A program made the translations under genes and the position numbers. Positions 18,202-58,183 of a stretch of 64,000 nt of DNA are shown piece after piece (the first letter of the stretch is position 1; each line of letters opens with the position of its first letter). The stretch lies in the NCBI GenBank assembly GCA_043818215.1, contig JBDRGC010000127.1, forward strand, positions 12,832 through 76,831, given 5' to 3'. The DNA comes from Chloroflexota bacterium (GTDB lineage: Bacteria > Chloroflexota > Anaerolineae > Anaerolineales > UBA11858). Below the pieces are notes generated by a model that did no database searches, was not told the DNA's origin, and was given only the letters and a program-made list of their open reading frames with translations.

Positions 18202-18308
18202 TTCATCTCCCCTCACCCCTCACCCCTCTTCCCTCTCCAAATATCATCGCCATCGTCCAGGCCCGAATAGACTCTTCTCGCCTGCCGGGCAAAGTGCTGC
18301 TCGACATC
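18198..18308 (+). pseudogene. 5' fragment (~37 codons) of the SpsF-like cytidylyltransferase gene
   Basis: Near-identical to 20476-20586 (MIHLPSPL.PLPSPNIIAI.QAR.DSSRLPGKVLLDI). Similarity stops abruptly at 18308. Confidence 0.7.
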
Positions 18309-19328: not shown

Positions 19329-19342
19329 AGTCGAATAACCTT

Positions 19343-19711
19343 TGGCCCTACGATGAGTACCACACCAGCGATGATAACCTTGACATAATCCACGAAGATA
19401 TGCTCCAGGGAGCCGCCGACGTGATCGAAGAAATCGTGCGAATTTATGCCAGCAACTACATCCCCAGGCGCACATTCCGCGGGCCGGTGTTTCTCTCCGG
19501 TCACGGGCTGTGGGTCGATTGGCGCGATAATTGGGAACTCAACCGCGCCATCGAAAAAATTATGATGCGCTTCGAGGGCCAGCACAGCATTTTCGACATC
19601 GCCGCAGACGTGGGTCTGGATTACTGGGTGGTGCGTGAATACGTCGAAAAATTTCGGGATAAGGCTCTTGTGAAAGCGCTGCCTATTCCCGGCGAGTCTC
19701 CGGGTTCATAG
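19343..19711 (+). pseudogene. 3' fragment (~122 codons) of the DUF4910-like gene
   Basis: Collinear with 17065-17433. By manual alignment about 6 of ~122 residues differ. It has no 5' part. Confidence 0.75.
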
Positions 19712-19725
19712 GGTATACTTGAACC

Positions 19726-20088
19726 ATGAGTACTTTACAGACCCTTGAACCAATTGAGATGGATTTGAATACATGGAAGGCTCGCCTGGAGTCCGAATTG
19801 GCGCGTTTTGTGGACTTAATTATCGAACATTTCTCGCCGAAGAAGATCATCTTATTTGGCTCATTCGCGGAAGGGAAACCGCGGATCTGGTCTGATATTG
19901 ATTTGGTAGTGATCAAAGAAACAGATGATCGCTTTCTGGATCGTTCGAAAGATTTACTTCCTTTACTGATGCCGCGTGTTGGCTTAGACCTCATTGTTTA
20001 CACGCCAGCAGAATTTGACCAATTATGCCAGGAACGTAAATTCTTCCAAGATGAAATCTTGGAAAAAGGGAAAGTGTTGTATGGGTAG
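19726..20088 (+). CDS. MNT-type nucleotidyltransferase antitoxin (copy B, diverged)
   Basis: LFGSFAEGKPRIWSDIDL motif. Clearly more diverged from copy A than the flanking segments are. Confidence 0.75.
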   Translation: MSTLQTLEPIEMDLNTWKARLESELARFVDLIIEHFSPKKIILFGSFAEGKPRIWSDIDLVVIKETDDRFLDRSKDLLPLLMPRVGLDLIVYTPAEFDQLCQERKFFQDEILEKGKVLYG

Positions 20089-20479
20089 CCCCACTGATTG
20101 GCTTTATTTTGCTCGTGAAGATCTTCGTGTGGCAGAATTGACGCTATCGAATGAGATTTACAACCAGGTATGTTTCCACTCTCAACAATGTTGTGAGAAG
20201 GCTCTCAAAGCCTGGCTTGCTCATCAAGGTATTGAATCGCCGAGAAAACATCAATTGAGTGTGCTATTGGCCCTTTCGACGATTGATATTTTTGCAGAGT
20301 TAGGTGGGGATATCGTTCGTCTTGATCGTTTTTACATTCCCACTCGCTATCCTGACGTGCTGGCAGGTTCACTTCCTGAGGGACTTCCAAATAAAGCAAA
20401 TGCCGAGGAAGCTATTGATACTGCTCGCAAAGTTCTCCACCGCGTCGAACAACATATTTCCACCCAACCCTCCCGTTGA
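20081..20479 (+). CDS. HEPN-domain toxin (copy B, diverged)
   Basis: FAREDLRVAE...FHSQQCCEKALKA and IPTRYPD motifs. The last ~19 residues are nearly identical to copy A. Confidence 0.75.
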   Translation: MGSPTDWLYFAREDLRVAELTLSNEIYNQVCFHSQQCCEKALKAWLAHQGIESPRKHQLSVLLALSTIDIFAELGGDIVRLDRFYIPTRYPDVLAGSLPEGLPNKANAEEAIDTARKVLHRVEQHISTQPSR

Positions 20480-21405
20480 TTCATCTCCCCTCACCTCTCT
20501 CCCCTCTTCCCTCTCCAAATATCATTGCCATCATTCAGGCTCGCATGGACTCATCACGCTTGCCGGGAAAAGTGCTGCTCGATATCGGCGGTCGTCCGAT
20601 GCTCCAGTGGGTCGTCGAGCGCACCCGCCGCGCCAAAACCGTGGACGAAGTCATCGTCGCCACCACCACCGACCCATCCGACGATGCCGTAGCCCAATTT
20701 TGCGAGGCCAAAGGTTACCCCGTCACCCGCGGCAGCATCCACGATGTGCTGGATCGCTACTACCAGACCGCCCGGCAATTCAAAGCCGACGTCATCGTGC
20801 GCATCACTGCCGATTGTCCGCTGATTGACCCCGCGCTGGTGGACGGGACGGTGTTCTCGTTATTTGAGATTGGAGATTGGAGATTGAAAGCCGAATCTCC
20901 AATCTCAAATCTCAAATCCCCGATTTTTGACTTCGTCGCCAACCGCCTCCCGCCTCCCTGGGGACGCACCTACCCCATCGGCCTCGACACCGAAGTTTTT
21001 ACATTCGATGCTCTGGAACGTGCCTGGAAGCGAGCTATCGCCAGACACCACCGCGAACATGTCACCCCCTATTTTTACGAAGACACTCCTGTCGATCATT
21101 TGAAATTCAGTGTGCAGGGATCGGAATTTTCCAGCGCCATGACACTTGATGGACTCCACATCGCCTTGCTCCACCACGACCCCGACTACGGCCGCCTGCG
21201 CTGGACGGTGGACACCCCCGCGGATTTGGAACTGGTGCGCGCTATTGTGGCCCATTTCGATAGCCGCGACGACTTCACCTGGCAGGATGTGCTGGCTATC
21301 TTCGAGCGCGAGCCGGAACTGGCGCAAATCAACGCCAGCGTGCGGCACAAGACACACTTGGATGTGGACGATAGGTCAGTAAATCAGGAAGCAGTAAATC
21401 AGTAA
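20476..21405 (+). CDS. cytidylyltransferase-domain protein (SpsF/PseF-like CMP-sugar synthetase family)
   Basis: IIQARMDSSRLPGKVLLDIGGRPML is the N-terminus typical of the SpsF/COG1861 family. The start codon is uncertain (TTG at 20476). It contains an in-frame array at 20866-20919, and its tail (NQEAVNQ) is array-encoded. Confidence 0.7.
   Translation: MIHLPSPLSPLPSPNIIAIIQARMDSSRLPGKVLLDIGGRPMLQWVVERTRRAKTVDEVIVATTTDPSDDAVAQFCEAKGYPVTRGSIHDVLDRYYQTARQFKADVIVRITADCPLIDPALVDGTVFSLFEIGDWRLKAESPISNLKSPIFDFVANRLPPPWGRTYPIGLDTEVFTFDALERAWKRAIARHHREHVTPYFYEDTPVDHLKFSVQGSEFSSAMTLDGLHIALLHHDPDYGRLRWTVDTPADLELVRAIVAHFDSRDDFTWQDVLAIFEREPELAQINASVRHKTHLDVDDRSVNQEAVNQ
20866..20919. repeat. in-CDS inverted heptamer array (GAGATTG x3 / AATCTCC-AATCTCA)
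   Basis: It encodes EIGDWRLKAESPISNLKS inside the cytidylyltransferase. Confidence 0.8.
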
Positions 21406-21588
21406 ATCAGGAAACCAGGAAACCAGGAATCAGTAGATCAGGATGCCAGGGAAGACTGATTTACTGATCTACTGATCTACTGATCTACTGATCTACTGAT
21501 TTACTGATCTACTGATTTACTGATCTACTGATCTACTGATTTACTGATTTACTGATCTACTGATCTACTGATCTACTGATCTACTAAC
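21376..21588. repeat. octamer arrays with inverted arms (CAGTAAAT/CAGGAAAC then CTACTGAT/TTACTGAT x~18)
   Basis: Read directly. It spans the stop of the upstream CDS and ends 3 nt before the next ATG. Confidence 0.9.
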
Positions 21589-28051: not shown

Positions 28052-28172
28052 GGATTAGGAACCAGGAAACCAGGAAACCAGGAAATCAGGAAACCAGGAA
28101 ACCAGGAAATACCGCCCCCTGGTCTACTGATTCCTGATTTACTGATCTACTGATCTACTGTTCTACTGATAC
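28049..28172. repeat. octamer arrays with inverted arms (CAGGAAAC then CTACTGAT)
   Basis: Read directly, between the sulfotransferase and oxidoreductase genes. Confidence 0.9.
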
Positions 28173-33198: not shown

Positions 33199-34251
33199 AT
33201 GCCCGATTTACCTCGACTTTTCGATCTGACAGACCGCGTTGCCATCGTCACCGGCGCCGCCGGCCTGTTGGGAACTGAATTCTGCCGCACACTGGCCGAG
33301 GCTGGGGCGGCGGTTACGATTGCGGATATGGATGGGGACTCTGCCGCTGATGTGGCGGATACCCTCACCCGAGGCGGATTCCGCGCCCTGGGGCTTAAAA
33401 CCGACGTGACCGCGCCGGATTCCGTTACCCGAATGGTGGCTGCTACCCTGGGGGCATTTGGGCGTCTCGACATCCTGGTTAACTCCGCCGCTCTCGATCC
33501 CAAGGTCAGGGAGCAGGAAGCAGGAAACCAGGAATCAGGAAACCAGGGATTAGGGACTAGGGATCAGGGACTAGGGACTAGGGATCAGGGATCAGGAAAC
33601 CAGGGATCAGGAAACCAGGGATCAGGAAACCAGGGATCAGGAAACCAGGGATCAGGAAACCAGGGATCAGGAAACCAGGGATCAGGAAATCAGGGATCAG
33701 GGACTAGGAATCAGGAACCGGGAGAATCCCTAACCCCTAACCCCCTAACCCCTAACCCCTTGTCCCTCACCTTCGAAGACTACCCCCTCGAACTCTGGCA
33801 GCAAGCTCTGGACGTCAACCTGACGGGGGCTATGCTATGCTGTCAAGCCGCCGTGCGGCCCATGTTGGAACAGGGCCGCGGGGTCATCATCAACATCGCT
33901 TCCATCTACGGCCTCGCCGCCCCCGACCAGCGACTCTATCAGCGTGAAGGGCAGTTCCCGCAGTACAAGCCCGCCTATTACACCGTCACCAAAGCCGGCG
34001 TGCTCGGTCTCACCAAATATCTGGCGGCCTATTATGCTGGCAAGAATATCCGCGTCAATGCCCTGACTCCCGGCGGCGTCTACAACGGCCACGATGACGA
34101 GTTCGTCAAAGCCTACTCCGCCCGCGCCGTCATGGGCCGCATGGCCGAAAAAGACGAGATGAACGGCGCCCTCCTCTTCCTGGCCTCCGAGGCCTCCAAA
34201 TACATGACCGGCGCTAATCTCATCGTCGATGGGGGCTGGACAGCGTGGTGA
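33199..34251 (+). CDS. SDR-family oxidoreductase carrying an ~85-aa array-encoded insertion
   Basis: TGAAGLLG, NSAA and YxxxK (YTVTK) motifs. The insertion (GSGNQ)n lies right after the NSAA strand. ATG at 33199. Confidence 0.75.
   Translation: MPDLPRLFDLTDRVAIVTGAAGLLGTEFCRTLAEAGAAVTIADMDGDSAADVADTLTRGGFRALGLKTDVTAPDSVTRMVAATLGAFGRLDILVNSAALDPKVREQEAGNQESGNQGLGTRDQGLGTRDQGSGNQGSGNQGSGNQGSGNQGSGNQGSGNQGSGNQGSGTRNQEPGESLTPNPLTPNPLSLTFEDYPLELWQQALDVNLTGAMLCCQAAVRPMLEQGRGVIINIASIYGLAAPDQRLYQREGQFPQYKPAYYTVTKAGVLGLTKYLAAYYAGKNIRVNALTPGGVYNGHDDEFVKAYSARAVMGRMAEKDEMNGALLFLASEASKYMTGANLIVDGGWTAW
33506..33762. repeat. in-CDS arrays: CAGGAAAC/TAGGGAC words, a 15-nt (7+8) unit CAGGGATCAGGAAAC x~8, then CCTAACC
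   Basis: Read directly. The 15-nt composite period keeps the frame and gives (GSGNQ)n. Confidence 0.9.
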
Positions 34252-37931: not shown

Positions 37932-38322
37932 GAATCAGTAGGTCAGTAGATCAGTAGATCAGTAAATCAGGGATCAGTAGATCAGTAAATTAGTAAATCA
38001 GTAGATCAGTAAATCAGGAATCAGTGGATCAGGGAGCAGTAGATCAGGAATATAATCAGGGTTTCCTGATTTCCTGATTTCCTGGTTTCCGGATTTCCTG
38101 ATTTACTGATTTCCTGATTTACTGATTTACTGATTTCCTGATTTCCTGATTTCCTGGTTTCCTGATTTCCTGATTTCCTGGTTTCCTGATTTCCTGGTTT
38201 CCTGGTTTCCTGGTTTCCTGATTTCCTGGTTTCCTGGTTTCCTGATTTCCTGGTTTCCTGGTTTCCTGGTTTCCTGATTTCCTGGTTTCCTGGTTTCCTG
38301 GTTTCCTAGTTTCCTAGTTTCT
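37931..38322. repeat. largest array in the window (~390 bp): CAGTAGAT/CAGTAAAT arm then TTTCCTGA/TTTCCTGG arm
   Basis: About 48 octamer units can be read directly, with an orientation switch near 38055. It generates the spurious ORF 38127..38411. Confidence 0.9.
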
Positions 38323-39076: not shown

Positions 39077-39262
39077 GGGGACTGGTAAATTGGGGAGTGG
39101 TAAATTGGTAAATTGGGGATTGGTAAATTGGTAAACTGGGGACTGGTGATTGGTTCCCAGCTTACCAACCTACCAATCTACCAATCTACCAACCTACCAA
39201 CCTACCAATCTACCAATCTACCAATCTACCAATCTACCAACCTACCACTCCCCAATTCCCAA
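39077..39262. repeat. octamer arrays with inverted arms (TGGTAAAT/TGGGGACT then CCAATCTA/CCAACCTA)
   Basis: Read directly, ending 5 nt before the kinase ATG. Confidence 0.9.
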
Positions 39263-40683: not shown

Positions 40684-40790
40684 CTCGCCATTCGCCATTC
40701 GCCACTCGCCACTCGCCATTCGCCATTCGCCACTCGCCATTCGCCATTCGCCCCTCGCTATTCGCTATTCGCCACTCGCCACTCGCCCCC
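40684..40790. repeat. heptamer array (CATTCGC/CACTCGC, ~15 units)
   Basis: Read directly. It extends the ORF-track ORF 40658..41809 upstream of the real start. Confidence 0.9.
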
Positions 40791-40813: not shown

Positions 40814-41809
40814 ATGAAAAGACCACTCAGCATCATAATTCCATGCTTCAATGAACAAGCCACTATTCGTTTGCTGCTGGACGCCATCTACGCGCAAACG
40901 TATCCCCGCGAACAGATAGAAGTGATTATTGCCGACGGCATTTCCACGGATGATACCCGCGCAGAGATTCGCGCTTTCCAGCAAACCCATCCAGACCTGA
41001 ACATCGAAGTGGTAGATAACCTGAAGCGCAATATTCCTGCGGGGCTTAACCGAGCCATCGAGGCTGCTGGCGGAGAGTTCATCGTGCGGCTGGATGCTCA
41101 CTCTGTGCCCCACAATGATTACGTTTCCCGGTGCTTGGCTGCTTTAGATGCCGGCCTGGGCGACAACGTCGGAGGGGTGTGGGAAATCCAGCCCTCGGAG
41201 CCGGGATGGGTGGCACGTTCCATTGCGGCTGCGGCAGCCCACCCACTTGGCGTGGGCGATGCCAGTTACCGGGTCGGCGGCCAGCCACAAGCCGTAGATA
41301 CGGTTCCCTTTGGGGCCTTCCGCCGCGCATTGACTGATCGCATAGGCCTTTTTGATGAGACTTTGCTTTCCAATGAAGATTATGAGTTCAACGTTCGGGT
41401 GCGCCAATCGGGGGGCACTGTTTGGATGGACCCTGCAATCCGCTCGCAATACTTTGCGCGTCCTAACCTGCGGGCGCTTGCCAAACAGTATTGGCGCTAC
41501 GGGTATTGGAAATTGTGTATGCTGAGACGTTTCCCGGAGACGTTTCGTTGGCGGCAGCTTTCGGGGGCCTTCGTGCTTACCTGGTTGGTTTTAGGTATAC
41601 TTGCAATTTGGTTCCCTGTGGCTCAGTGGCTCCTGTCGGCGGAGGCTATCATTTACAGTCTAGCCCTGGCAATGGCCGGAGCGCAGACTGCTGTGAAAAA
41701 CCGTGATCTGGCGATGTTGGTTGGCGTGCCTCTGGCAATTGCAACCATGCACTTCGCCTGGGGAACAGCGTTTTTGTGGAGTTTGTTGAAATCGGTGATT
41801 GGAGATTAG
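40814..41809 (+). CDS. glycosyltransferase family 2 with C-terminal TM helices (ExoA-like layout)
   Basis: LSIIIPCFNE, ADGISTDDT and RLDAHS motifs. ATG at 40814. Confidence 0.75.
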   Translation: MKRPLSIIIPCFNEQATIRLLLDAIYAQTYPREQIEVIIADGISTDDTRAEIRAFQQTHPDLNIEVVDNLKRNIPAGLNRAIEAAGGEFIVRLDAHSVPHNDYVSRCLAALDAGLGDNVGGVWEIQPSEPGWVARSIAAAAAHPLGVGDASYRVGGQPQAVDTVPFGAFRRALTDRIGLFDETLLSNEDYEFNVRVRQSGGTVWMDPAIRSQYFARPNLRALAKQYWRYGYWKLCMLRRFPETFRWRQLSGAFVLTWLVLGILAIWFPVAQWLLSAEAIIYSLALAMAGAQTAVKNRDLAMLVGVPLAIATMHFAWGTAFLWSLLKSVIGD

Positions 41810-41909
41810 AGATTGGAGATTGGATACTGGAGATTGGAGATTAGAGACTGGAGACCGTAGACGGAAATTGAGACTGGAAATCTCTAATCCCTAATCTCCA
41901 ATCTCCAAT
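41795..41909. repeat. inverted heptamer arrays (GAGATTG/GAGACTG then AATCTCY)
   Basis: Read directly. It overlaps the GT2 stop. Confidence 0.85.
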
Positions 41910-43330: not shown

Positions 43331-43525
43331 TGGAGGGTGGAGCGTGGGGCGTGGGGCGTGAAACGTGACGAAGTCCCCGAAGCGCAGCGGAGTGGGAAGA
43401 CGTGAAACGTGATGCGTAGGCAACTTGCCTCTTGTACCTTGCCTCCTGCACCTTGCCCCCTGCCTCTTGCACCTTGCCTCTTGCCTCTTGCCCCCTTGCA
43501 TCCCGCCACCCGCCACTCGCCTCAC
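43331..43525. repeat. composite array: GGGGCGT/ACGTGAA words, a 45-bp conserved element, then CTTGCCT/CTTGCAC and CACTCGC words
   Basis: Read directly. It extends ORF 43409..45472 upstream of the real ATG at 43535. Confidence 0.85.
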
Positions 43526-45599: not shown

Positions 45600-46586
45600 A
45601 TGCCTGAAACCACTCTCGAAGAATGGGACGCTTTCCTATCCCGCTATCCCAACGCTCACCTGCTTCAAACCCAGTCGTGGGGTGAACTCAAGTCCACCTT
45701 TGGTTGGAACGTGGTCAGGATTGTGACCCGTGACGCCGGCGCCCAGATTCTCTTCAAAAAACTCCCCCTGGGACTGACGTGGGCCTACCTCCCCAAGGGG
45801 CCGGTGGGAGAGAATTGGGGCGATCTCTGGCCCGCGGTGAACGCGGCCTGCCGCAGGCGGCGGGCTGTATTCCTGAAAGTGGAACCCGACCTATGGGAGC
45901 AGGAGGCGGGTTCCCCCCGGGATGCCGCTACGCCCACAGGATTCCGCCTCAGCCCCCACCACATCCAGCCCCCGCGCACCCTGTTAGTAAACCTCGCCGG
46001 GGCAGAGGATCAAATCCTATCGCGCATGAAACAAAAAACTCGCTACAATATCGGTCTGGCAATCAGAAAAGGCGTGGTTGTGCGCTCATCGAATGATATT
46101 GATGGCTTTCACAAATTAATGCAAACGACTGGCGAAAGGGACGCGTTCGGGGTTCATAGTCTGGAATACTATCGCCGGGTATACGGTCTGTTTGCGCCGC
46201 GGGGCGAGTGCGAGTTGTTGTGGGCCGAGTATCAAGAAGAGCCGTTGGCAGCTTTGATGATTTTGGTGCATGGGAACCGGGCCTGGTATTTTTACGGCGC
46301 GTCATCGAACCTGCACCGCAACCGCATGGCTCCTTATATTTTGCAGTGGGAGGCCATGCGGTGGGCACGTGCGCAGGGCTGTATCGAATATGATCTGTGG
46401 GGTGTCCCGGATGCCGATATAGAAACCCTTGAGGCCGAGTTCATGCAACGCAGAGATGGTTTGTGGGGCCTGTACCGTTTCAAGCGCGGCTTCGGCGGCA
46501 AACTGCACCGCGTGGCCGCCCCCTGGGACCGCGTTTATCGCCCGGGTTTATATGCTTTTTATCGTTGGTGGGTGTCGTCTCGATAA
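45600..46586 (+). CDS. FemAB-family aminoacyl/peptidyl transferase
   Basis: LLQTQSWGELK...AWYFYGASSN.HRNRMAPYILQWEAMRWA is the pattern of FemAB (PF02388-like). Confidence 0.75.
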   Translation: MPETTLEEWDAFLSRYPNAHLLQTQSWGELKSTFGWNVVRIVTRDAGAQILFKKLPLGLTWAYLPKGPVGENWGDLWPAVNAACRRRRAVFLKVEPDLWEQEAGSPRDAATPTGFRLSPHHIQPPRTLLVNLAGAEDQILSRMKQKTRYNIGLAIRKGVVVRSSNDIDGFHKLMQTTGERDAFGVHSLEYYRRVYGLFAPRGECELLWAEYQEEPLAALMILVHGNRAWYFYGASSNLHRNRMAPYILQWEAMRWARAQGCIEYDLWGVPDADIETLEAEFMQRRDGLWGLYRFKRGFGGKLHRVAAPWDRVYRPGLYAFYRWWVSSR

Positions 46587-46593
46587 TAAGGTA

Positions 46594-46845
46594 GTTGCTC
46601 AAAATGTTAGTGGTGGATTGCATCCCAAAGGAAGCGTACCCACCAACAAAACCGAATTGTAAATGGTAAATGGTGAATTATAAATGGTAAATGATTGTGG
46701 CGCTGTCTGCACTTCATTTACAATTTACCATTCACCAGTTACCATTTATAATTTCATTCCCCCCTGCATAATTCAAATGACGCACTTTGGGGGGCAAAAA
46801 AGCATTTATGGGGATAACTTGAATAGACCGAACTGCAATATCATG
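46594..46845 (+). repeat. 252-bp dispersed repeat, copy A (contains a TAAATGG inverted heptamer hairpin)
   Basis: Near-identical to 48222-48473 in direct orientation. Confidence 0.9.
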
Positions 46846-47025
46846 CCCTTTGGGTACGCACCAAACGTTAGTATAAGTAGGGCAGGTATCCTTACCTGCC
46901 ACTCGTCAATCTCGCAACGTAATCGTCATCGGTGGGAATGGAATCCCGCCCTACGAGTACGTATAACAACAGGGATTTTGAGCAATTACAACTATTTCTA
47001 GTTAGCGCTTTGAAGGCTGCCGTAA

Positions 47026-48195
47026 ATGAATAAAAAACGTCCATTCGTACTCCATCTAACCTGGGTGGTATTAGCTGTGATCATCATTGCTGCCATTGTA
47101 TTGGCATCTTTGGTTCTGAAAAATATCGCCAACGAGAATTCACAAATCATACCCATTTACAGTCCAGGATCATATAATTTCGAGGGCCAAGCTGTGCGCC
47201 TGGCCTGGTTTTACAAGCCGCCTGTAGATGGCAATCTGGCTTCAGTGGCCGAGAACTTCGACACTATCATTTTGACATCCAACGATGAAAACGAGCGCGA
47301 TGAGCTTCAACAACGCGGCCTTGACACCCCCATTTTGCAATATCTAAGTTTCGACGCCATCCAAGATCCTGGCTCATGCGATGCCCAGCCCTACCAAAAC
47401 CAGGTCGCCAACCAGATCGGCGATTTCTGCCGTATCAGCGAACAGCACCCCGATTGGTTTCTGCTAGATATGCACGGCGAACGCATGAGTAACGGGAGCG
47501 GAAGCGTGATGATGGACCCCGGCAACCAGGAGTGGCGCGCCTTTTGGCTGGAGCGGGCCATCCAAAGCCAGGAACACCTCGGTTGGGATGGCGTTTTCCT
47601 TGACAATGTGGAGGCCAGCCTAAGCAAGCGCGCCCGCCGGGGACAGCTCCCCGCGGCTTACCTCACCAATGCCAGCTACCAAACTGCTGTTTTGAGATTT
47701 TTGCAATACATCTACATTAACTACTTTCAACCACAACAACGCCCCCTGATGGCCAATATTATCGCACTGGAAAATGAGGGCATCTGGTTCGATTATCTGC
47801 AATTTCTTGATGGCGTCATGGATGAAGGATGGGCAGTCGATTGGGAAGATGGTTACCGCAGCTCTGGCAGTTGGGAAGCAGACCTCGTCCGGGCCGAGGA
47901 GACTCAAGGGCTTGGCAAAACGATCCTGCTCGTCTCACAAGGGAATTACAGCGATATCCAACGCCAGGAATTTACCTTTGCCTCATACCTGCTCATCACC
48001 TATGGACGGGCCGCATTCCGCTACACCCACGCCGATCATTATAATGAAATTTGGCTTTATCCAGCCTACGACCTCGATCTGGGGGAACCTCTGGGCGGGC
48101 GTTATATCGACGGCAATCTGTGGCGCCGCGATTTCACCAACGGAACCGTGACCGTTGATCCCCTGAATCATACTGCGACGATTAGTGGGCCGTGA
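47026..48195 (+). CDS. exported/anchored putative glycoside-hydrolase-like protein (GHL15 / TIM-barrel-like)
   Basis: N-terminal TM/signal anchor, with WFLLDMHGERM...MMDPGNQEWRAFW...WDGVFLDN reminiscent of the GHL15/GH114-like families. Tentative. Confidence 0.4.
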   Translation: MNKKRPFVLHLTWVVLAVIIIAAIVLASLVLKNIANENSQIIPIYSPGSYNFEGQAVRLAWFYKPPVDGNLASVAENFDTIILTSNDENERDELQQRGLDTPILQYLSFDAIQDPGSCDAQPYQNQVANQIGDFCRISEQHPDWFLLDMHGERMSNGSGSVMMDPGNQEWRAFWLERAIQSQEHLGWDGVFLDNVEASLSKRARRGQLPAAYLTNASYQTAVLRFLQYIYINYFQPQQRPLMANIIALENEGIWFDYLQFLDGVMDEGWAVDWEDGYRSSGSWEADLVRAEETQGLGKTILLVSQGNYSDIQRQEFTFASYLLITYGRAAFRYTHADHYNEIWLYPAYDLDLGEPLGGRYIDGNLWRRDFTNGTVTVDPLNHTATISGP

Positions 48196-48221
48196 AACGT
48201 GGTGCTACACATTTTCACGTT

Positions 48222-48473
48222 GTTGCTCAAAATGTTAGTGATGCATTGCATCCCAAAGGATGCGTACCCACCAACAAAACCGAATGGTAAATGGTAAATG
48301 GTGAATTATAAATGGTAAATGATTGTGGCGCTGTCCGCACTTCATTTACAATTTTCCATTCACCATTTTCCATTTATAATTTCATTCCCCCTTCATAATT
48401 CAAATGACGCCCTTTGGGGGGTAAAAAAGGCATTTATGGGAATAACTTGAATAACCCGAACTGCAATATTATG
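48222..48473 (+). repeat. 252-bp dispersed repeat, copy B
   Basis: Near-identical to 46594-46845. It abuts a truncated trmO-like fragment. Confidence 0.9.
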
Positions 48474-48608
48474 GTGCTCGATGTAGACGAGGAACACGGC
48501 ATCGTTATGCTGCCCTGGATAGATGCTCTCGATGGCACACCCGTTCTCGATCTGAAGCCTTACATACCAATCTCAGATCGCATTCATGATTACAAGGTTG
48601 CAGCATGA
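48474..48608 (+). pseudogene. 3' fragment of a TrmO/YaeB (TsaA-like) methyltransferase gene
   Basis: LDALDGTPVLDLKPYIP is the conserved C-terminal motif of TsaA/TrmO. The N-terminal ~100 residues are missing, and the apparent N-terminus of ORF 48414.. is repeat-derived. Confidence 0.5.
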
Positions 48609-48734
48609 CTTGAAGAGTGGCCCGAATGGATGGAAGATGCCGCTGAACATTTTACCAAGCACGAAGTTGATTTTGGGGAGTGAGTCTATAAAGCGGTATT
48701 GCGATAAAAACAATCTTGCAAAAGGGAGCCCGCG

Positions 48735-50534
48735 ATGAGCAAATCATCTTCTCTGCACATTTTTGGGCGGACAATTCCGATGTGGGTTGTGGCGTTGGCG
48801 TTTGTCATATTGGGGCTGATGGCTTACTCGCCTTATCTGGGTTCTGGCTTCTCCGGTGATGATTTCATCTTCGTCAATATGCTGGAAGGTGCCATTCCTT
48901 ACGACCCGGTGATGGGTTTCTGGTTCGGCGACATAGACTCCTACCCAGGTTTTACGATGCAGTGGTGGTTCGAACCAGGCGTGGCAGGGTCTTTCCTGCG
49001 CCCGTTGGCAAGCTGGACGCTGACCCTGCTGTACCAAACCTTTGGCCGCAACGCGGTTCCCTTTCATATCACACTGGTGATGGTACATGCGCTGGGAGCT
49101 TTTACCGCCTGCCTCGTGCTGCGGCGATTATCGGGCCGTGACGCGCCCGCGCTGCTGGCTGCGCTGCTGTTTCTCATCTGCGAAGACCACGCCATGACTG
49201 TGGCCTGGATCGCCACCATCACCGACCTGCTATGCGCGCTGTTCCTGAATTTGGCCTTTCTGTGTCACATCACTGCCCGGCAGGAGCGCAAACCCTGGCT
49301 GATTGCCCTGAGCCTGGTTTTCTTCCTGGGGGCGATCACTTCCAAAGAGACGGCTGCCATCTACCCCTTGATTATCGCCGCTTACGAGTTCTTCTTCGCC
49401 GAGCACTTGAGCAGCGACCGCGAACAAGTCAGTTTGATCGCCCGCGTCAGGCTGTTTTTCCGGCATTGGTGGGCCTGGGCGATTCCCCTGACCGCTGTCG
49501 CCGCTTATATGACCTTCTACCTCAACCTCGTCCCGCCAATGCGCAGCCTGATGTACGTGGATCCCTTCAGCCAGCCGGGCCGTTACCTGATTATGATGCT
49601 GACCAACCTGCCGGTGATGTTCGTAGCTCTGTTGACGCAATTCCTGCCTTCGATTGTGGTCATGCTCCCCAAGACGCTGCCCTTCGTGGCGGGGCCCGGA
49701 GTGATCTTGACCGGCCTGCTGCTTTGGGCGTTGCTTCCCTACCGGCGGGAACGCGCCGTCTGGTTTGCACTGCTCGTCTTCGTGTTGGGCCTGCTCCCGG
49801 GCCTGGCGACCGAACCCGGCGAGCGGCTGCTCTACTTCCCCAGCATGTACGGGCTTTTCCTCGTGATCTGGCTCATCGTGCAGATTCCCATCTTGCGGCC
49901 GCGATTCGCGCCCGATGCCCCGCCCGGCGTGCGGCGGCTTGGCGCGGCGTGGGGCTGGTACCTGGCGGCTTCTGCGCTGATCCTGCCGGTCATCCTGCTG
50001 TTCGTCTCCCCCTCGATGTGGATTCCTGGCCTGCAATGGCCTGAACAGACAATGCTCGACAGCCTGCCGATTATCGACGCCGGCGAGTACGAGCATATCG
50101 TCTACCTGAACACCGACTCATCCTACAATTCCTTCTATCTGCCCGATATCTACCGCTACCACCGCGGCGAGTACATCGACCTGCGGCTGCTTTCGAGCTT
50201 CAACGGGCACGTGTGGGCCAGGCAGGCATCGGATCATGCCATCGTACTCAAGAGCGAGGATACCGGCTGGTTGAGCAATATGTTCGCCCGGCTCACGCGC
50301 CTCACGCCGGAGTTCGCTGTGGGCGACGAGTACACCACGTCGCTGTTCACGGCCACCATTTTAGCTGTAACGCCAGACAGGCAGGATGTGCAAGAAGTGC
50401 GCTTCGAGTTTACACTCCCCCTGGACGATCCGTCGATTGTGCTGCTGTTCTACGATGGGGAAAACTATCTCCGCTGGGAGCTATCGACGGAGTGGGAGCT
50501 GCTCAACCCGAGGTTGGATCCGTTTGCGTTCTAA
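48735..50534 (+). CDS. polytopic membrane protein, GT-C-like glycosyltransferase/polymerase candidate with soluble C-terminal domain
   Basis: 599 aa with about 12 TM segments. The early loop motif is SGDDFIFVNMLEG. No precise family recognised. Confidence 0.45.
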   Translation: MSKSSSLHIFGRTIPMWVVALAFVILGLMAYSPYLGSGFSGDDFIFVNMLEGAIPYDPVMGFWFGDIDSYPGFTMQWWFEPGVAGSFLRPLASWTLTLLYQTFGRNAVPFHITLVMVHALGAFTACLVLRRLSGRDAPALLAALLFLICEDHAMTVAWIATITDLLCALFLNLAFLCHITARQERKPWLIALSLVFFLGAITSKETAAIYPLIIAAYEFFFAEHLSSDREQVSLIARVRLFFRHWWAWAIPLTAVAAYMTFYLNLVPPMRSLMYVDPFSQPGRYLIMMLTNLPVMFVALLTQFLPSIVVMLPKTLPFVAGPGVILTGLLLWALLPYRRERAVWFALLVFVLGLLPGLATEPGERLLYFPSMYGLFLVIWLIVQIPILRPRFAPDAPPGVRRLGAAWGWYLAASALILPVILLFVSPSMWIPGLQWPEQTMLDSLPIIDAGEYEHIVYLNTDSSYNSFYLPDIYRYHRGEYIDLRLLSSFNGHVWARQASDHAIVLKSEDTGWLSNMFARLTRLTPEFAVGDEYTTSLFTATILAVTPDRQDVQEVRFEFTLPLDDPSIVLLFYDGENYLRWELSTEWELLNPRLDPFAF

Positions 50535-51340: not shown

Positions 51341-52282
51341 ATGAGCAACAACCATCGAGTCTATCGCAGCATCCGAAATGCCACCAAGCAATTCTATCCA
51401 AATAAACCCGAATGGAATTTGGCTCGCCAATCGAACCCGTTGGCGGAGTTGGCAACAGTGATCGCTCAAAGCAATCGCAGACAATTGCCTGCGATTGCCT
51501 GGAAGTTTCCTGTTAGCACCAAGCCGGAGAGCCAGGTGACGAAATATTGCTGCCGTATACAGAACGAGCTGACTGATTTGGAAATCCACTATTTGCCCTT
51601 TGTCAGAGAATTTCTGGCTGCGCTGGCCGATATTCGCACGTTGGTCTTGGTGATGGATGATCGTGAAGTGGGGCACAATTGTCCGGCTCTGATGCTCAGC
51701 GTGGTTTACAAAGGTCGAACTTTGCCTATTGCGTGGATCGTTGCCAAAGGCAGCCACGGTAATTATCCTGCCGCAAATCATGCCGCCTTAGTCCATAAAG
51801 CCCACCAACTTATCCCCGCAGGAGCAGATGTCATTTTCTTAGATGATATGGACTTGGACAGCACTCCCCTGCAAACCACGATCAAGGCGTATGGATGGGC
51901 TTATGTCTGCCGCGCGGCAGAGGACGTCATCCTTCAAGAAGATGGGGTAGAGTTCTCGTTCAAAGACCTTATGGTCACTCCCGGAGATTGCCTCAGTCTG
52001 CCGCAAGTATTGCTCGCTCAACAAGGTTATAGGCCAGTCCATGCGATTGCCCGGTGGCAAAAAGGCTGCCAAGAACCACTCTATTTGATCACCAATTTAG
52101 AATTGGCAGAAGAAGCTTGTTACTGGTATGCCAGGCGGCTCCGAATCGAAACCTTTTTTTCTGATGAAAAAAGCCGTGGATTTCACATTCACAAGAGCCA
52201 TCTTTCTGACCCAGATCGATTAGCCCACCTAATGATAGCCGCTTGTTTAACCTACATTTGGATCATTTACCTGGGCGTTTAG
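51341..52282 (+). CDS. IS4/IS5-superfamily DDE transposase (possibly truncated)
   Basis: Acidic residues occur in LVMDDRE and IFLDDMD contexts, and the Y-x2-R-x3-E-x6-K signature (YARRLRIETFFSDEK) is typical of DDE_Tnp_1. The ORF ends soon after it. No terminal inverted repeats were found. Confidence 0.6.
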   Translation: MSNNHRVYRSIRNATKQFYPNKPEWNLARQSNPLAELATVIAQSNRRQLPAIAWKFPVSTKPESQVTKYCCRIQNELTDLEIHYLPFVREFLAALADIRTLVLVMDDREVGHNCPALMLSVVYKGRTLPIAWIVAKGSHGNYPAANHAALVHKAHQLIPAGADVIFLDDMDLDSTPLQTTIKAYGWAYVCRAAEDVILQEDGVEFSFKDLMVTPGDCLSLPQVLLAQQGYRPVHAIARWQKGCQEPLYLITNLELAEEACYWYARRLRIETFFSDEKSRGFHIHKSHLSDPDRLAHLMIAACLTYIWIIYLGV

Positions 52283-52641
52283 GAATGAGAATTAAATAAC
52301 TTACCCATTCAAGCAATCACGGTAGCGCCGGTTGAGTAGCGCAGGCACATGCTTTTCGTGCCGTAGCGTATACCTATGCAGGTATACCGTCCCGGTATCT
52401 AGGGACTGCGCACCTGCACTGCATGTGGCGCAAGTGTCGAAACCCAGCGGATTACAGGAAACTAGCCCATTTTCAAGCCCCGTTTGGTTTCTGGACGATC
52501 CATCGATTGTGTTGCTGTTCTACGATGGGGAAAACTATCTCCGTTGGGAGCCATCGACGGAGTGGGAACTGCTCAACCCGAGGCTGTATCCATTTGCGGT
52601 CTAAACCCCGGTGCATGCAAGGATGAAGTGATATTCATTTC

Positions 52642-55600
52642 TCAAGCTATGGGCCATTCGGTTATCACTGCATCTATCTCGGCCATCAGGCGGATGGTTT
52701 CGCGCAAAGCTTTGACAATACACCCATAATGGCGCACGTCGTCGAAGGTGAGGGCGCGCTGGGCTTTTTTGCGATCTTTGAGCCATTTATCGAGTACCTG
52801 GTAGCCGCCGATCTGGAATTCCCACACTTGTGGCTCGATGCCAGCGAAGTACTGCTGGTTGTTGATGTAGACGCGGCCTTGCTCCAAGTGAGTATCGCTG
52901 CCGGGAGCGGGTTCACCTGGAGCGTAGTAACGCGGGTAACGGCTGACCGTCAAATCTGAGCCGGAGACTGGGTAGCTGACGCCAGTTTTACGTAGGGACT
53001 CGGATTCCATCAGGTGCAGAGCGACCAATTGCCCGCCTTTTTCGGCCAGGGTGCGGAAGAGGGCCACATCACTTGTCAGGGGCAGACGGGGGAAATCAAT
53101 CTTTAGAAATTCAGCGTAGCGTTCGCGGAAGGTGGGCGAGTGGAAGACGGCGTAGGCGTAGTCGAAGATGTCTTCAGGGCCGAAGTTTTCTTGCAGGTCG
53201 CCGCGGCCGTTAGGGGTGAAGGCTAAACTCAGTTTATCTTTCGTATAGGCCAGGAACTTTCGTGAGAGATTAGGACAGCGGGTTTTGTATGGTTCCTGTT
53301 CTTCAAACAGACTCAAAATGAACGGCATGCTGCCCCCGCTGCTGAGAGTTTCTATCTTTTTTCTCGTGTTGTTATAGAGATAGAGGGGAAATAGAACAGG
53401 AGTTCCTCGATTACTAAAAAACGTTCTGTTATCAGCAATTACATTCGTAGCAATAAAGTGATTATGTGGAGGACCAACTACTTGTCGTATGGTTAATAAT
53501 GCCATGTTATTGTGCAACATGTGCTGAGATACATCCATTCTTGGGCGGTCGACAAAACCAACAGAATAAAAAATTGATCTAATGTCAAAAGGACGATAGA
53601 GATATTGACTGAAATGTTCGTCCCAGCCAGTTTGATTTTGAAAACTATCCCGTGCCTCGGATAACTTCCAATCTCGAGTGTCATTCAGTTCAAAGCGATC
53701 TTTAATTATCTCATCAGAAAATTTCTCATCGCGAAATATTTTGATTCTTTCTCGTAATGCGTCTTCGTCAAAATCAATCACAAAATGATCCCTGTGAGTT
53801 TTGACACCGCTGGAATGCACAGGGAAAATATCGGTCACGCTCCAGCCGCGCTGGTATTCATCGTACAAGTTAAAATCTTTGGGCACGAAGAAGTAGTGCG
53901 GGGCTTGGGGGGTTAGTTCTTCCCAGTCGGTAGTGCTGAGGTCGTGGGTGTTGAGGGCGTTGTATTTATCAGCGCGGCGGCCCCACAGGTCAGCGTAGTA
54001 GACATCTGCCAAGACCTCCGAGGTTTCCGAGACCTCGGAGGTCTTACCTTGGGGCAACTTCACCGCCAAAATAATCCCCACGCCCTGACGAATGTCGAAT
54101 ACGTTTTCGTCTTTGCTGCCGTCGGAAGCGGTTTCTCCCATCAGGGCATTGCCGTGCAGGTTGAGCAGGTAAATCTCATCGAAGGTTTTCATCAATTCCT
54201 GGCGCATGCCGCGGTGAATCAGCCCGGAGAGATAGGAGTGATTGGTGATCATCCCCACCAGCCCGTAGCCAGTCTGTTCGATGCGCTCGTGAGCAAAACG
54301 TAAAAACTTGATGTAATCATCCGAAAGGGGCTGGATATTGCGCTCATCGCGCACGGCCTTTTTGTAACGCTTCATCAACTGCTCGATGTATTCTCCCTTG
54401 TTGGCCGAACTGACCGAGTAAGGCGGGTTGCCCAGTACAACCATAATGGGCTTATCTCCCTTGATTTCAGCGGCTGCGTTGGCTTCCTCGGTAATATAAC
54501 GCGCAAAGGGGGCAACCTCCTCTTGAAAAATAGGTTTGCCCAAAGTGTTGGTCAGGTAAACACCCAACCGCTGTTTTCCAGCAAATTGATAGCCTAATTT
54601 TTGAAGCTGAATCCCCAACTTCATATGCGCCACCGCGTAGGGAGCCATGAGCAACTCGAAACCAAAGATGCGCGGCAAAAGCTGGTTTTTAGCGTAATCG
54701 TCCCACATCCCGGCCAGCCCCATAACTTCCAGCGACTCGTAAACGCGCTGGATCACGAAATACAAAAAGGTAGCCGTACCCACCGCTGGGTCGAGGATTA
54801 GGGTGTCCCGGTCGGCCAGTCCATCGGGTCGGCCAAAGCGTGTTTTAAGCAAATAATCCAGCGAGCGCACGATATACGAAACCACTGGCTCCGGAGTGTA
54901 ATACACACCGCGTGCCTGACGCATTCGCGGGTCGTAGGCAGCCAAAAAAGTCTCGTAGAAATGCACCACCGGGTCTTCCTGGCGGGTGCTTTTGCCGAAA
55001 TCACGCAGAACTGCGTCCATATCGGCGTTAGCCAGCAGATGGGCAATATCATCTACCAACCAGGCGATGCTGTCATCCAAGTCTGGCCCGGCAATTTCGT
55101 TGAATAGCTTACGCAAGAAAGGATTGGTTTTGGGGAGATTCCAGGCCGCTTCGCGACGGGTGAATTCCTGAGGAGCGGGTACTCGCACCCGCGCGGCGAA
55201 CAACCCATAGGTGATGGTTTGGGCGTACATATCGGCGAACTGGGCCACATCTAGGTCAGGTATCAGCGTTTCACGGAAGACGTTCATTTGAGCGTGAAGC
55301 GCACCCGATGCGCTCTCCTGCTCGAAGGCTTCGGAGAGCAGTTCGCGTAACATACGCGCCAGACCAGCCATCCGCCGCGCCAGTTCCTGCGGGTCGCCAA
55401 TGACCGGGGTCTGTTGGGTCAAAAACCGGTTGAGTAGGTTGGCGGTTTGCTGTATGCCCCCTGGTTCGGTACGAATTTGATGGTCTCTGGTCAACCTGCC
55501 CAGCTGGACTGTCTCCCGCAGATCGCCGTTTACATACCAATGGAATTCCAAGTAATCAGTCAGTATGAGATTGTTGAGCGAAGTCCGATAACGGGTTATT

Positions 55601-55863
55601 TGCTCATCATTTTCCAGCGCGTGCAGATTCGCCCCAATATCTTTGGCCTCCACGTAACCAATCGGTGTTTGCCCGCGCAATATGCAATAATCAGGCGCGC
55701 CACAAGCCACACGTTTGGGTTCGTTTATAGCCTGGATATCATCGGCGAAGCTTTCCAGCAAAACCGACAAAGCTGGGCGGTGGGTGTGCTCAGTAGCATC
55801 GCCGGTATCGAGTTTCTGGCGCAATGATTTTAGATATTCCTTGAGCATAGTATTATCAGTCAT
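52642..55863 (-). CDS. single-polypeptide type IIG (type IIL-like) restriction-modification enzyme: N-terminal PD-ExK nuclease, gamma-class N6-adenine methyltransferase, C-terminal specificity domain
   Basis: GAPDY-x12-VEAKD near the N-terminus, motif I LDPAVGTATFL, motif IV GNPPY and a long C-terminal region conserved in type ISP/IIG enzymes (FDYAYAVFHSP..., GGYQVLDKWLKDR). Confidence 0.7.
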   Translation of the reverse strand: MTDNTMLKEYLKSLRQKLDTGDATEHTHRPALSVLLESFADDIQAINEPKRVACGAPDYCILRGQTPIGYVEAKDIGANLHALENDEQITRYRTSLNNLILTDYLEFHWYVNGDLRETVQLGRLTRDHQIRTEPGGIQQTANLLNRFLTQQTPVIGDPQELARRMAGLARMLRELLSEAFEQESASGALHAQMNVFRETLIPDLDVAQFADMYAQTITYGLFAARVRVPAPQEFTRREAAWNLPKTNPFLRKLFNEIAGPDLDDSIAWLVDDIAHLLANADMDAVLRDFGKSTRQEDPVVHFYETFLAAYDPRMRQARGVYYTPEPVVSYIVRSLDYLLKTRFGRPDGLADRDTLILDPAVGTATFLYFVIQRVYESLEVMGLAGMWDDYAKNQLLPRIFGFELLMAPYAVAHMKLGIQLQKLGYQFAGKQRLGVYLTNTLGKPIFQEEVAPFARYITEEANAAAEIKGDKPIMVVLGNPPYSVSSANKGEYIEQLMKRYKKAVRDERNIQPLSDDYIKFLRFAHERIEQTGYGLVGMITNHSYLSGLIHRGMRQELMKTFDEIYLLNLHGNALMGETASDGSKDENVFDIRQGVGIILAVKLPQGKTSEVSETSEVLADVYYADLWGRRADKYNALNTHDLSTTDWEELTPQAPHYFFVPKDFNLYDEYQRGWSVTDIFPVHSSGVKTHRDHFVIDFDEDALRERIKIFRDEKFSDEIIKDRFELNDTRDWKLSEARDSFQNQTGWDEHFSQYLYRPFDIRSIFYSVGFVDRPRMDVSQHMLHNNMALLTIRQVVGPPHNHFIATNVIADNRTFFSNRGTPVLFPLYLYNNTRKKIETLSSGGSMPFILSLFEEQEPYKTRCPNLSRKFLAYTKDKLSLAFTPNGRGDLQENFGPEDIFDYAYAVFHSPTFRERYAEFLKIDFPRLPLTSDVALFRTLAEKGGQLVALHLMESESLRKTGVSYPVSGSDLTVSRYPRYYAPGEPAPGSDTHLEQGRVYINNQQYFAGIEPQVWEFQIGGYQVLDKWLKDRKKAQRALTFDDVRHYGCIVKALRETIRLMAEIDAVITEWPIA

Positions 55864-57924: not shown

Positions 57925-57998
57925 GTTGGTAATTGGTAAATTGGTGATTGGTAGATTGGTAAATTGGTAATTGGTAAACTGGTGCTTGGTGGATTGGT
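57925..57998. repeat. octamer/heptamer array (TGGTAAAT/TGGTAATT/TGGTAGAT)
   Basis: Read directly, upstream (minus sense) of CoA-transferase A. Confidence 0.85.
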
Positions 57999-58183
57999 AT
58001 GCTCAGTATACTCCGCACGGTCAGTGTAAAGTCAATGTCATTAATTTTATCCATCGGCGGATTATAGCGCAGTATCCCCTTGCGGGATGAAACCGCCTGG
58101 AACATGTCAGAAAACCTTATTTTGCTCCTGTCGGATCCGTCCCTCAAGGGGATGCTGCGCGATGATCCGACAGACACCAACCC

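Follow-up and report, generated by a model that had tools for sequence, protein, structure and literature searches.

Several families of short repeats that occupy bacterial intergenic DNA offer points of comparison for the locus described here. The BOX and RUP elements of pneumococci, the Correia elements of neisseriae and the ERIC and BIME elements of enterobacteria are non-coding, hairpin-forming and modular, and lie just downstream of genes. The STRR sequences of cyanobacteria are heptamers repeated in tandem between genes, and each genome has many such arrays. Gene units bracketed by MITEs or insertion sequences are also known, as composite transposons and as the MITE-flanked integrons of Acinetobacter.

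A further comparison is with the IS66 family, in which the inverted repeats begin with GTAA and the direct repeats are 8 bp long (PMC11946415). ISDge4, from the ISBst12 group of this family, has the ends GTAACTGCTCAGCA and an 8-bp direct repeat (PMC12898284). The MITEs derived from IS66 elements (ISBst12 group; ISDge4, Deinococcus geothermalis) share with the repeats examined here the GTAA ends, the 8-bp repeat (seen here in one relative), the small size, the lack of a transposase and the presence of multiple copies. The repeats at this locus have diverged from each other and belong to a small MITE-like family, non-coding and mosaic in structure, from an uncultured Anaerolineae lineage, and they flank a GHL15 gene that is followed by the remnant of a trmO-like gene.

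Structure of the repeat pair

The window (the whole 64-kb stretch of DNA that was analysed) contains two copies of the repeat and no more. The left end of element A lies 4 nt 3' of the FemAB stop codon, and its terminal inverted repeats (TIRs), GTAGTTGCTCAAAAT and ATTTTGAGCAATTAC, are complementary at 14 of 15 positions (93%; 46591-46605 vs 46975-46989), in agreement with the terminal inverted similarity that the earlier note had described for this stretch. A hairpin that it had placed near 46879 is likewise present, as GGCAGGTA-TCCT-TACCTGCC at 46881-46900. The sequences flanking element A, ATAATAAG and AACTATTT, differ and show no target duplication.

Copy B begins 23 nt 3' of the GHL15 stop codon. 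The two copies had been proposed to be direct repeats of 252 bp; they are indeed direct repeats, but homology begins 3 nt earlier and extends over 255 bp, with 92.97% identity in 256 columns, two 1-nt indels (blastn, E ~1e-105) and 18 differing positions. A heptamer hairpin of the TAAATGG type, also recognized previously, could be located in each copy, with arms that are 88% complementary in A (46655-46694 / 46714-46753) and 83% complementary in B. The element has no coding capacity, tRNA or Rfam family: its longest ORF (105 aa) matches no Pfam family and is not kept in copy B, Rfam 15 gave zero matches at the gathering score, and at E <= 1 nothing appeared beyond miRNA precursor models matched as generic hairpins, far under the cut-off.

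The sequence CTGCAATATyATG, previously taken as a conserved tail that closes the element, does not mark its end. A 32-nt family module, GAACTGCAATATCATGCCCTTTGGGTACGCAC, crosses the supposed end at 46830-46861 and occurs again at 1265-1296 of L001, a 99.8%-identical contig from a conspecific MAG, and family sequence continues through the tail in both places. Because the module spans the supposed end in A and in L001, the junction in A is native and that of B is novel.

Table 1. Coordinates and supporting evidence for features of the locus, for other repeat-bracketed insertions in the window and for additional family copies on contig L001
Feature	Position	Strand	Evidence or remark
FemAB-family gene, upstream neighbour of A (window and L004)	45600..46586	+	Pfam PF02388, E = 2.7e-38
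Element A, complete, 399 bp, MITE-like, both TIRs	46591..46989	+	TIR scan; no Pfam, no Rfam
Repeated part of element A (copy A of the 252-bp repeat of the earlier note)	46591..46845	+	92.97% identity to 48219-48473
Heptamer-array hairpin in A	46655..46753	+	Units AATGGTA / CATTTAC
Right arm of element A, not in copy B	46846..46989	+	Contains hairpin 46881-46900 and right TIR
GHL15 putative glycoside hydrolase (389 aa; hydrophobic anchor or signal at the N-terminus)	47026..48195	+	Pfam PF14885
Element B, truncated: left TIR and left 255 bp only	48219..48473	+	TIR scan
Heptamer-array hairpin in B	48283..48381	+	Arms 48283-48322 / 48342-48381, 83% complementary
ATTATG, inferred microhomology between B interior and trmO-like gene interior	48468..48473	+	Junction comparison
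TsaA/TrmO-like remnant, last 70 of ~168 codons	48471..48683	+	TrmO_N 89-116 of 116, E = 1.6e-6
PMT_2 / GT39-like membrane glycosyltransferase, downstream neighbour	48735..50534	+	PF13231 precomputed on homologues
Window insertion bracketed by direct repeats	50421-50534 / 52491-52604		
Window insertion bracketed by direct repeats	17053-17352 / 19331-19630		
Extra copy, same species, unrelated context	L001 2750-2975		Extra copies 85-94% identical
Extra copy, core inverted, upstream of a gene	L001 1229-1475	opposite orientation	Extra copies 85-94% identical
Extra copy, same species	L001 3081-3325		Extra copies 85-94% identical

A dispersed family with IS66-like ends

The repeat is not unique to its two positions in the window, as L001 carries at least two further copies in unrelated contexts. 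For the species as a whole, 4-5 copies occur in ~67 kb of sequence, in three or four spacers between unrelated genes; of five copies, three retain only one recognizable end (B, C and D). A 148-bp relative lies at 3444-3591 of L006, a contig of a sister species with a 92% identical PMT_2 protein. Its ends, GTAATTGCTCAAAAT and ATGTTGAGCAATTAC, form TIRs (3444-3458 vs 3577-3591), its first 36 nt share 89% identity with the left end of A, and the 8-mer GATTTTTC adjoins both ends as a perfect 8-bp target duplication, the only clean one among the family members seen, which range from 148 to 399 bp. The extra copies in the same species, the TIRs and the target duplication in the relative bear out the earlier view of the repeat as a non-autonomous, dispersed, MITE-like sequence, and the family has presumably spread by transposition. 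As A and B are slightly more similar to each other (93%) than either is to other copies (85-90%), B may have arisen locally from A.

Searches for more distant members returned little. An nhmmer search with a five-copy profile found zero additional copies in the window and the contigs examined, and the family motif TTCATTCC-N3-10-CATAATTCAWAKGAYGC had zero matches in GTDB representative genomes. The one match to this motif in JGI metagenomes (L005), on an AT-rich phage-like contig, was rejected as chance, and three matches of the 19-mer GTTGCTCAAAATGTTAGTG in viral contigs all look like chance, their likeness ending after ~25 nt and one of them (L018) lying within apparent coding sequence.

The ends of the family match those of ISDge4 at 11 of 14 bases, and the ends of ISGka4 on pHTA426 include GTAACTATTCAGC. 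Inverted repeats that start with GTAA and an 8-bp target repeat, features of IS66/ISBst12 elements, are both present in the L006 element, a likeness that concerns short ends only. These ends and the 8-bp duplication fit mobilization in trans by an IS66-family transposase resembling those of the ISBst12 group, which, judged from the sequence of the ends, would be the partner of the family. A matching autonomous IS was not found in the 64-kb window, nor was a transposase gene bounded by such ends seen in the sequence examined from this lineage. Its sole transposase, an IS4-family fragment at 51341-52282 with an NF033591 match under the cut-off, was rejected as a partner, as its flanks form no matching inverted repeats.

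The family differs from IS66-derived MITEs in that most copies are truncated or rearranged and in that a long subfamily carries an internal tandem-heptamer hairpin of ~100 nt. In its mosaic character it resembles the BOX/RUP, Correia and ERIC/BIME elements, since module content, length and orientation vary among A, B, C, D and the L006 element. However, its sequence is unrelated to theirs, it shows ends like those of IS66 with a duplication of 8 bp instead of TA or other targets, and its copy number appears low in the available sequence.

The trmO-like remnant and its junction with copy B

In relation to the TsaA/TrmO family (PF01980, TrmO_N), the remnant directly after copy B corresponds to the C-terminal part of the domain and retains the DGTPVLDLKPY motif. 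It contains no complete TrmO_N domain, keeping only profile positions 89-116 and the C-terminal tail, with an internal stop. The presence of a headless trmO-like gene at this position had been noted before and stands, whereas the remnant is 70 codons long rather than ~44. Homologues are 70-77% identical across all 69 residues and have Trp at the position of the in-frame TGA (48606-48608), and an identical TGA is found in protein P0242 of an independent MAG. Because the TGA takes the place of a conserved Trp, the remnant is a pseudogene. The full-length form, rebuilt from L020, has 168 aa with TrmO_N at 11-116, and this ~168-aa gene is itself broken elsewhere, by an in-frame stop in L020 and by an internal deletion and frameshift in L022 and L023. 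The remnant is an ordinary dead gene, derived from a paralogue that is short (~168 aa) and has a single domain, and not a working TrmO. Short TrmO-like database matches (64-111 aa) were considered as a conserved mini-protein family and dismissed, the DNA showing contig-edge calls or gene fragments.

No right TIR was found after copy B in the TIR scan. The junction sequences read CAATATCATGCCCTTTGGG in the native element (A), CCATTATGGTCCTGGACGTAGA in the native gene (relative L021) and CAATATTATGGTGCTCGATGTAGA in the window. By this comparison, the ATG in copy B belongs to the trmO-like gene as well, as does probably the whole ATTATG.

Taken as a whole, the locus is probably best explained by dispersed MITE-like copies and a microhomology deletion that truncated both B and the trmO-like gene. 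A basic element of ~150 bp, with 15-bp TIRs of the form 5'-GTA(A/G)TTGCTCAAAAT and producing an 8-bp target duplication, would have given rise to the subfamily found here, which would have grown to ~400 bp by gaining the internal tandem-heptamer hairpin and other modules. Copy A lies in the FemAB-GHL15 spacer and copy B in the spacer past GHL15. One illegitimate deletion would have taken out the right-hand ~145 bp of B and the first ~98 trmO-like codons, fusing B to the gene at the 6-nt ATTATG, and the TGG to TGA nonsense mutation would have come later, in the surviving 70-codon fragment. The deletion reading draws on one junction, and an intact element-plus-gene arrangement was not found among the relatives examined.

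The structure of this junction also bears on whether the two copies moved GHL15 together by transposition, in the manner of a composite transposon. Such a unit would account for one gene lying between two copies of an element that has TIRs, both in the same orientation, the feature in which the locus resembles known MITE- or IS-bracketed units, but it would require two functional outer ends and a duplication around the block. The block has one usable outer end, as B lacks its right TIR; no 8-bp duplication surrounds it, the left flank being ATAATAAG and the right one trmO coding sequence; its right boundary is a mid-gene fusion at microhomology rather than an element terminus; and its cargo has native composition. 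Joint transposition is accordingly considered highly improbable.

The GHL15 gene and its surroundings

The assignment of the gene between the repeats as GHL15-like is upheld by a Pfam match above the gathering score (E = 3.6e-34, 119.4 bits vs a cut-off of 27, residues 132-374). Its GC content is 52%, and its codon-usage distance of 0.060 falls inside the range of its neighbours. The nearest homologue outside the species is 68% identical, and relatives at or below this level all occur in unrelated contexts. Relatives of the PMT_2 gene (65-92% identical) have wholly different neighbours, with no adjacent trmO in any examined. Most simply, GHL15 is a resident gene of a glycan-biosynthesis cluster, with a family member that happens to lie in the spacer on either side.

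The earlier note had instead seen the repeat and GHL15 as a unit that the repeat had brought into trmO or its immediate vicinity. Several observations speak against this proposal: no 5' part of trmO lies upstream of A, the junction falls within the element and not at its terminus, B has no right end, target duplications are absent around both A and the A-to-B block, and the codon usage of GHL15 is that of its neighbours.

An insertion by recombination, in which a circular or linear DNA carrying the element and GHL15 recombined (Campbell-type) into a resident, already truncated copy between FemAB and the trmO remnant and so doubled the 255-bp homology around GHL15, is unlikely but has several points in its favor. 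A single crossover yields direct repeats around one gene, and it predicts the arrangement observed, with a complete left copy and a right copy at the old junction; among the copies, A and B resemble each other most (93%); two other insertions in the window are bracketed by direct repeats (114-300 bp; Table 1); and L001, in which the GHL15 side of copy A is joined to a different left flank, suggests exchange at the repeat. Against it, the 7% by which A and B have diverged is a high value for a duplication made recently by one crossover, GHL15 is native in codon usage and GC content and its function suits the glycan genes around it, an allele without GHL15 was not found, and the L001 join may be an assembly chimera, a ~60-nt exact stretch being common to A and other copies.

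The same join raises the question of assembly. The window and L001 diverge immediately left of 46601, and this conflict makes the assembly or strain structure at the repeat uncertain. Contigs L004 and L002 of a second MAG break within copy A, and the L001 version of A appears chimeric in its first ~100 nt. A repeat-induced misjoin or a collapse of strain variants in the metagenome could produce such mismatches and breaks. However, the segment from the right part of A through GHL15 and B to the trmO remnant is 99.8-100% identical in L001, L002 and L003, from three separate sample accessions, and the 18 differences between A and B mean that they are not one collapsed sequence, leaving an artefact as an extremely improbable explanation of the locus.

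Hairpins and heptamer arrays

In folding comparisons with shuffled sequences, a 444-nt stretch was much more stable than its shuffles (z = -6.7). The copies might be cis-elements (a terminator, an mRNA-stabilizing hairpin, a promoter or a small RNA) kept by selection, making the locus one of duplicated regulatory regions. Such a role would agree with the strength of the hairpin, with the position of A and B, which begin 4-23 nt past a stop codon, and of copy C on L001 and the L006 element, ~70 nt past stop codons, with promoter-like hexamers (10/12) that both copies carry in the descending arm, and with the presence of similar heptamer hairpins in most intergenic gaps. However, none of 38 hairpin pairs covary among five copies, substitutions breaking pairs with none compensated; the copy at L001 1229-1475 is reversed and lies 5' of a gene; the T-tract signature of a terminator occurs at the hairpin no more than expected by chance; no Rfam family matches; and the TIRs and the target duplication point to transposition. 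A selected regulatory function is thus very unlikely.

Palindromic arrays of 7- or 8-mers are not confined to the element. The window holds 48 of them, which make up 4.8% of its length and occur in nearly every intergenic gap, and they are all but absent from the relatives examined. This lineage-specific abundance is more striking than the finding of the repeats, which is itself ordinary. The hairpin of the element is built from tandem intergenic heptamers, as in STRR sequences, but the Anaerolineae belong to a different phylum, an array is usually joined here by a complementary array to form long hairpins, and the units are 7 or 8 nt long, changing between spacers.

It is conceivable, though improbable, that the hairpin belongs to a genome-wide system of palindromic 7/8-mer arrays, specific to the lineage and made by an undescribed process. 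If so, the arrays might arise from a source such as hairpin-templated slippage or a dedicated enzyme, and the MITE copies would show that arrays can be captured and then spread by a transposable element. The copies would also serve as sites of recombination at which gene neighbourhoods are rearranged, as might be suggested by the other left flank that GHL15 has on L001.

Concluding remarks

The dispersed MITE-like copies explain why contigs break and joins conflict in the MAGs of this species, and the adjacency of FemAB and GHL15 should be treated with caution, as it may be strain-specific or mis-assembled. A 53-aa protein called as a 'SAM-dependent methyltransferase' in public MAGs is a pseudogene fragment. 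For the Anaerolineae, in which few mobile elements have been described, a MITE family with IS66/ISBst12-like ends is new, and the truncated trmO-like gene beside copy B illustrates the loss of a gene at the edge of a MITE.

The GHL15 repeats belong to a dispersed family

The direct repeats A and B on either side of the GHL15 gene are 92.97% identical over 256 columns with two 1-nt indels, far above chance. An earlier note had reported them as 252-bp repeats; their existence stands but their bounds do not, as homology begins 3 nt before its coordinates, and 46845, where it ended copy A, is not the end of the element, which runs on to 46989. Homology between the copies breaks off sharply past ...CTGCAATAT(C/T)ATG. 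Each copy has a G+C content of ~38% (window, 53.8%) and contains a long imperfect hairpin, the 40-nt arms of which are tandem heptamers (AATGGTA-type units and their complement) with 88% complementarity in A and 83% in B. The 180 bp between the repeated part of A and GHL15 hold more hairpins, such as GGCAGGTA-TCCT-TACCTGCC (46881-46900). The repeat region yielded no Rfam family and no tRNA, and neither mismatch-tolerant block searches nor a profile search detected copies besides A and B in the 64-kb window.

Same-species contigs from other assemblies, found via exact-protein look-ups and 99.7-100% identical to the window, revealed that the repeat is a dispersed family rather than a local pair. 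Contig L001 (GCA_018812425.1) agrees with the window for 11.6 kb starting at 46601, and its differing left flank carries three more family members (see table). In a second MAG, both contigs break within copy A (L004 ends at window position 46724, L002 starts at 46750), as usually happens in assemblies at multi-copy sequence. Pairwise identity between copies is 85-94%, and that of A and B (93%) is only slightly above the identity of either to the others.

Left of copy A, the window and L001 conflict: FemAB lies upstream of 46601 in the window, while L001 1-3087 holds a biotin-ligase-like gene, orf73, and two further repeat copies, and over its first ~100 nt copy A in L001 bears variants that belong to a different member of the family. 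The conflict reflects either true recombination at the repeat or a chimeric assembly. A GC-rich ~114-bp unit (gaagcgtcccggaacg...ggggcgtggtgcgt), tandemly repeated ~2.3 times at L001 960-1228, adjoins one MITE-like copy, and a 30-nt piece of it also lies beside the L001 2750 copy (L001 ~3004-3033).

Element structure and a possible IS66-type partner

A 32-nt module, GAACTGCAATATCATGCCCTTTGGGTACGCAC, crosses 46845 in A and is contiguous again in the L001 1229 copy, so that A's sequence across the supposed end is native to the family. The right terminus of A, ATTTTGAGCAATTAC, is inverted and complementary to the left one, GTAGTTGCTCAAAAT, at 14 of 15 positions. In a sister species whose PMT_2 is 92% identical, contig L006 carries a 148-bp element (termini GTAATTGCTCAAAAT and ATGTTGAGCAATTAC), the first 36 nt of which share 89% identity with A's left end and which is flanked directly on both sides by the same 8-mer, GATTTTTC. 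Such a perfect adjacent 8-bp duplication is the mark that transposition leaves; combined with inverted ends, small size, multiple copies, and absence of coding capacity in the element, it fits a MITE. The non-autonomous, MITE-like nature proposed by the earlier note is supported by the inverted ends of A, the extra L001 copies, and the L006 duplication. A weak point is that no target duplication surrounds element A (ATAATAAG vs AACTATTT), which would also be an expected product of recombination between copies. The family is modular: the heptamer hairpin is absent from the short L006 form, one module is in opposite orientation between copies, heptamer counts differ by whole units, and both ends are kept only in A and the L006 element. 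The latter, with its target duplication, is followed directly by an array of ~5 CTTTGCG heptamers (L006 3592-3640), which shows that family elements and heptamer arrays co-locate in the sister species too.

The termini are identical at 11/14 positions to the published ends of ISDge4 (GTAACTGCTCAGCA), an IS66-family element of the ISBst12 group that makes an 8-bp direct repeat (PMC12898284). IS66 ends generally begin GTAA, and the family makes 8-bp repeats (PMC11946415); related ends, containing GTAACTATTCAGC, occur in an IS66-like element on Geobacillus plasmid pHTA426. Judged from these short ends only, which resemble its own, the element may have an IS66-type partner. No matching transposase was seen, and the window's sole transposase, an IS4-family fragment, was rejected as partner on its unrelated flanks.

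The hairpin folds very stably (z = -6.7, whole 444-nt stretch), elements begin 4-70 nt past stop codons, and promoter-like hexamers (10/12) lie in the descending hairpin arm of both A and B. Across five copies, compensatory changes were found at 0 of 38 pairs. Because substitutions break pairs uncompensated and one family copy is oriented oppositely, a terminator or promoter effect is treated as a possible by-product, not the reason for the copies' existence.

The trmO-like remnant and its junction with copy B

Past copy B, the match to the TrmO_N profile is confined to positions 89-116 of 116. The truncation of a trmO-like gene described previously is real, with 70 codons left instead of ~44. 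An in-frame TGA stands where every homologue has Trp and recurs in P0242, a MAG protein from an independent assembly, which marks the remnant as a pseudogene. Database homologues are 70-77% identical across all 69 residues. A short-protein family was rejected for these matches, as homologue DNA shows contig-edge calls or pseudogene fragments; the full-length gene has ~168 codons (TrmO_N positions 11-116).

In other Anaerolineae the same TsaA/TrmO-like gene is broken by an in-frame stop (L020 4700-5336) or by an internal ~150-nt deletion with frameshift common to two samples (L022 and L023 4860-5195), and the paralogue seems to undergo repeated decay. Public 53-111-aa calls annotated "tRNA (Thr-GGU) A37 N-methylase" or "SAM-dependent methyltransferase" are fragments of it.

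Alignment of the native element, the native gene, and the window junction placed the break within ATTATG, common to element and gene. A 6-nt microhomology thus appears to join the inside of copy B to the inside of the gene, and the simplest event would be a single illegitimate deletion that took ~145 bp of the element and ~98 codons of the gene. Insertion of a mobile unit into trmO, as first suggested, would leave other traces: the gene does not abut an element terminus, a target duplication is lacking, and the 5' half of the gene is nowhere upstream, where the FemAB stop codon lies 4 nt from A.

GHL15 between the repeats

The G+C (52%), GC3, and codon-usage distance of GHL15 (0.060; neighbors, 0.043-0.082) all lie within the neighbor range, while orf158 is clearly foreign by contrast (38% G+C). 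The function predicted for GHL15 suits the cluster around it, which comprises sugar transferase, CapD-like dehydratase, FemAB, GT2, and PMT_2 genes. Both observations speak against GHL15 as an insert. Campbell-type integration of a circle bearing one element copy and GHL15 into a resident truncated copy is an unlikely but live rival; it would yield exactly the structure seen, and two other insertions between long direct repeats occur in the window. A transpositional composite of element copies and GHL15, whose defining features the locus lacks, is highly improbable. Synteny favors neither side: the closest GHL15 from another species, at 68% identity, has different surroundings, and each relative examined differs in its neighborhood around PMT_2. 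Overall, the original observation is confirmed with corrections and its interpretation partly supported: the evidence favors a MITE-like non-autonomous repeat but does not support a repeat-plus-gene unit inserted into trmO.

Coordinates and sequences of the repeat family, the trmO junction, and other repeats
Feature	Location	Detail
GHL15-family gene, 389 aa	between repeats A and B	PF14885, E = 3.6e-34
Element A	46591-46989	repeated part 46591-46845
Copy B	48219-48473	
Family copy	L001 2750-2975	89.5% identity to A
Family copy, core inverted	L001 1229-1475	89% identity across 157 nt
Variant left end joined to A's sequence	L001 3081	
Sister-species element	L006 3444-3591	
trmO-like remnant	48471-48683	last 70 codons
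In-frame TGA	48606-48608	
Native element (A)		CAATATCATGCCCTTTGGG
Native gene, relative L021		CCATTATGGTCCTGGACGTAGA
Window junction		CAATATTATGGTGCTCGATGTAGA
Segmental duplication	17053-18308 vs 19331-20586	1256 bp; 77% identity overall, 95% in first 300 bp
PMT_2 last 114 bp incl. stop	50421-50534, repeated at 52491-52604	92% identity, 2070 bp downstream
Direct repeat	10961-11249 vs 11525-11813	289 nt, 78% identity, 564 bp spacing
Type ISP restriction-modification enzyme	52642-55863, minus strand	1073 aa (N6_Mtase + Type_ISP_C)
Example arrays	10553-10668, 15034-15219, 21376-21585, 28060-28170, 33506-33760, 37934-38321	
Example arrays	39083-39247, 40685-40787, 41797-41909, 43424-43499, 57926-57999	

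Other duplications and tandem arrays

The segmental duplication spans the 3' end of a DUF4910/M28 peptidase gene, a nucleotidyltransferase-HEPN toxin-antitoxin pair, and the first ~110 bp of the next gene, with an extra small-gene pair (18655-19328) between its copies; that identity is uneven along them suggests either alternative cassettes stacked in tandem or gene conversion. The PMT_2-end repeats, also present in MAG contigs L001 and L002, enclose the low-GC orf158 and the IS4-family transposase fragment (313 aa), and look like the result of an insertion by which a substitute 3' end of the gene was brought in or duplicated. The Type ISP gene directly follows the duplicated PMT_2 end. PIN, DUF6883, and NTase/HEPN toxin-antitoxin genes are scattered within the glycan cluster.

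The window holds 48 tandem arrays of 7- or 8-nt units (3078 bp, 4.8%; 7.5 per 10 kb), in nearly every intergenic gap and many with their own unit sequence, mostly paired with a complementary-unit array a few nt on to give long hairpins. Cyanobacterial STRR sequences are likewise tandem heptamers, but the present arrays form palindromes and their host belongs to the Anaerolineae. These arrays, collateral to the MITE-like repeat, are the most unusual thing seen. Their density in L001 equals the window's, and because more distant relatives are almost without them (0-1 per locus, 10 loci), their abundance looks lineage-specific.
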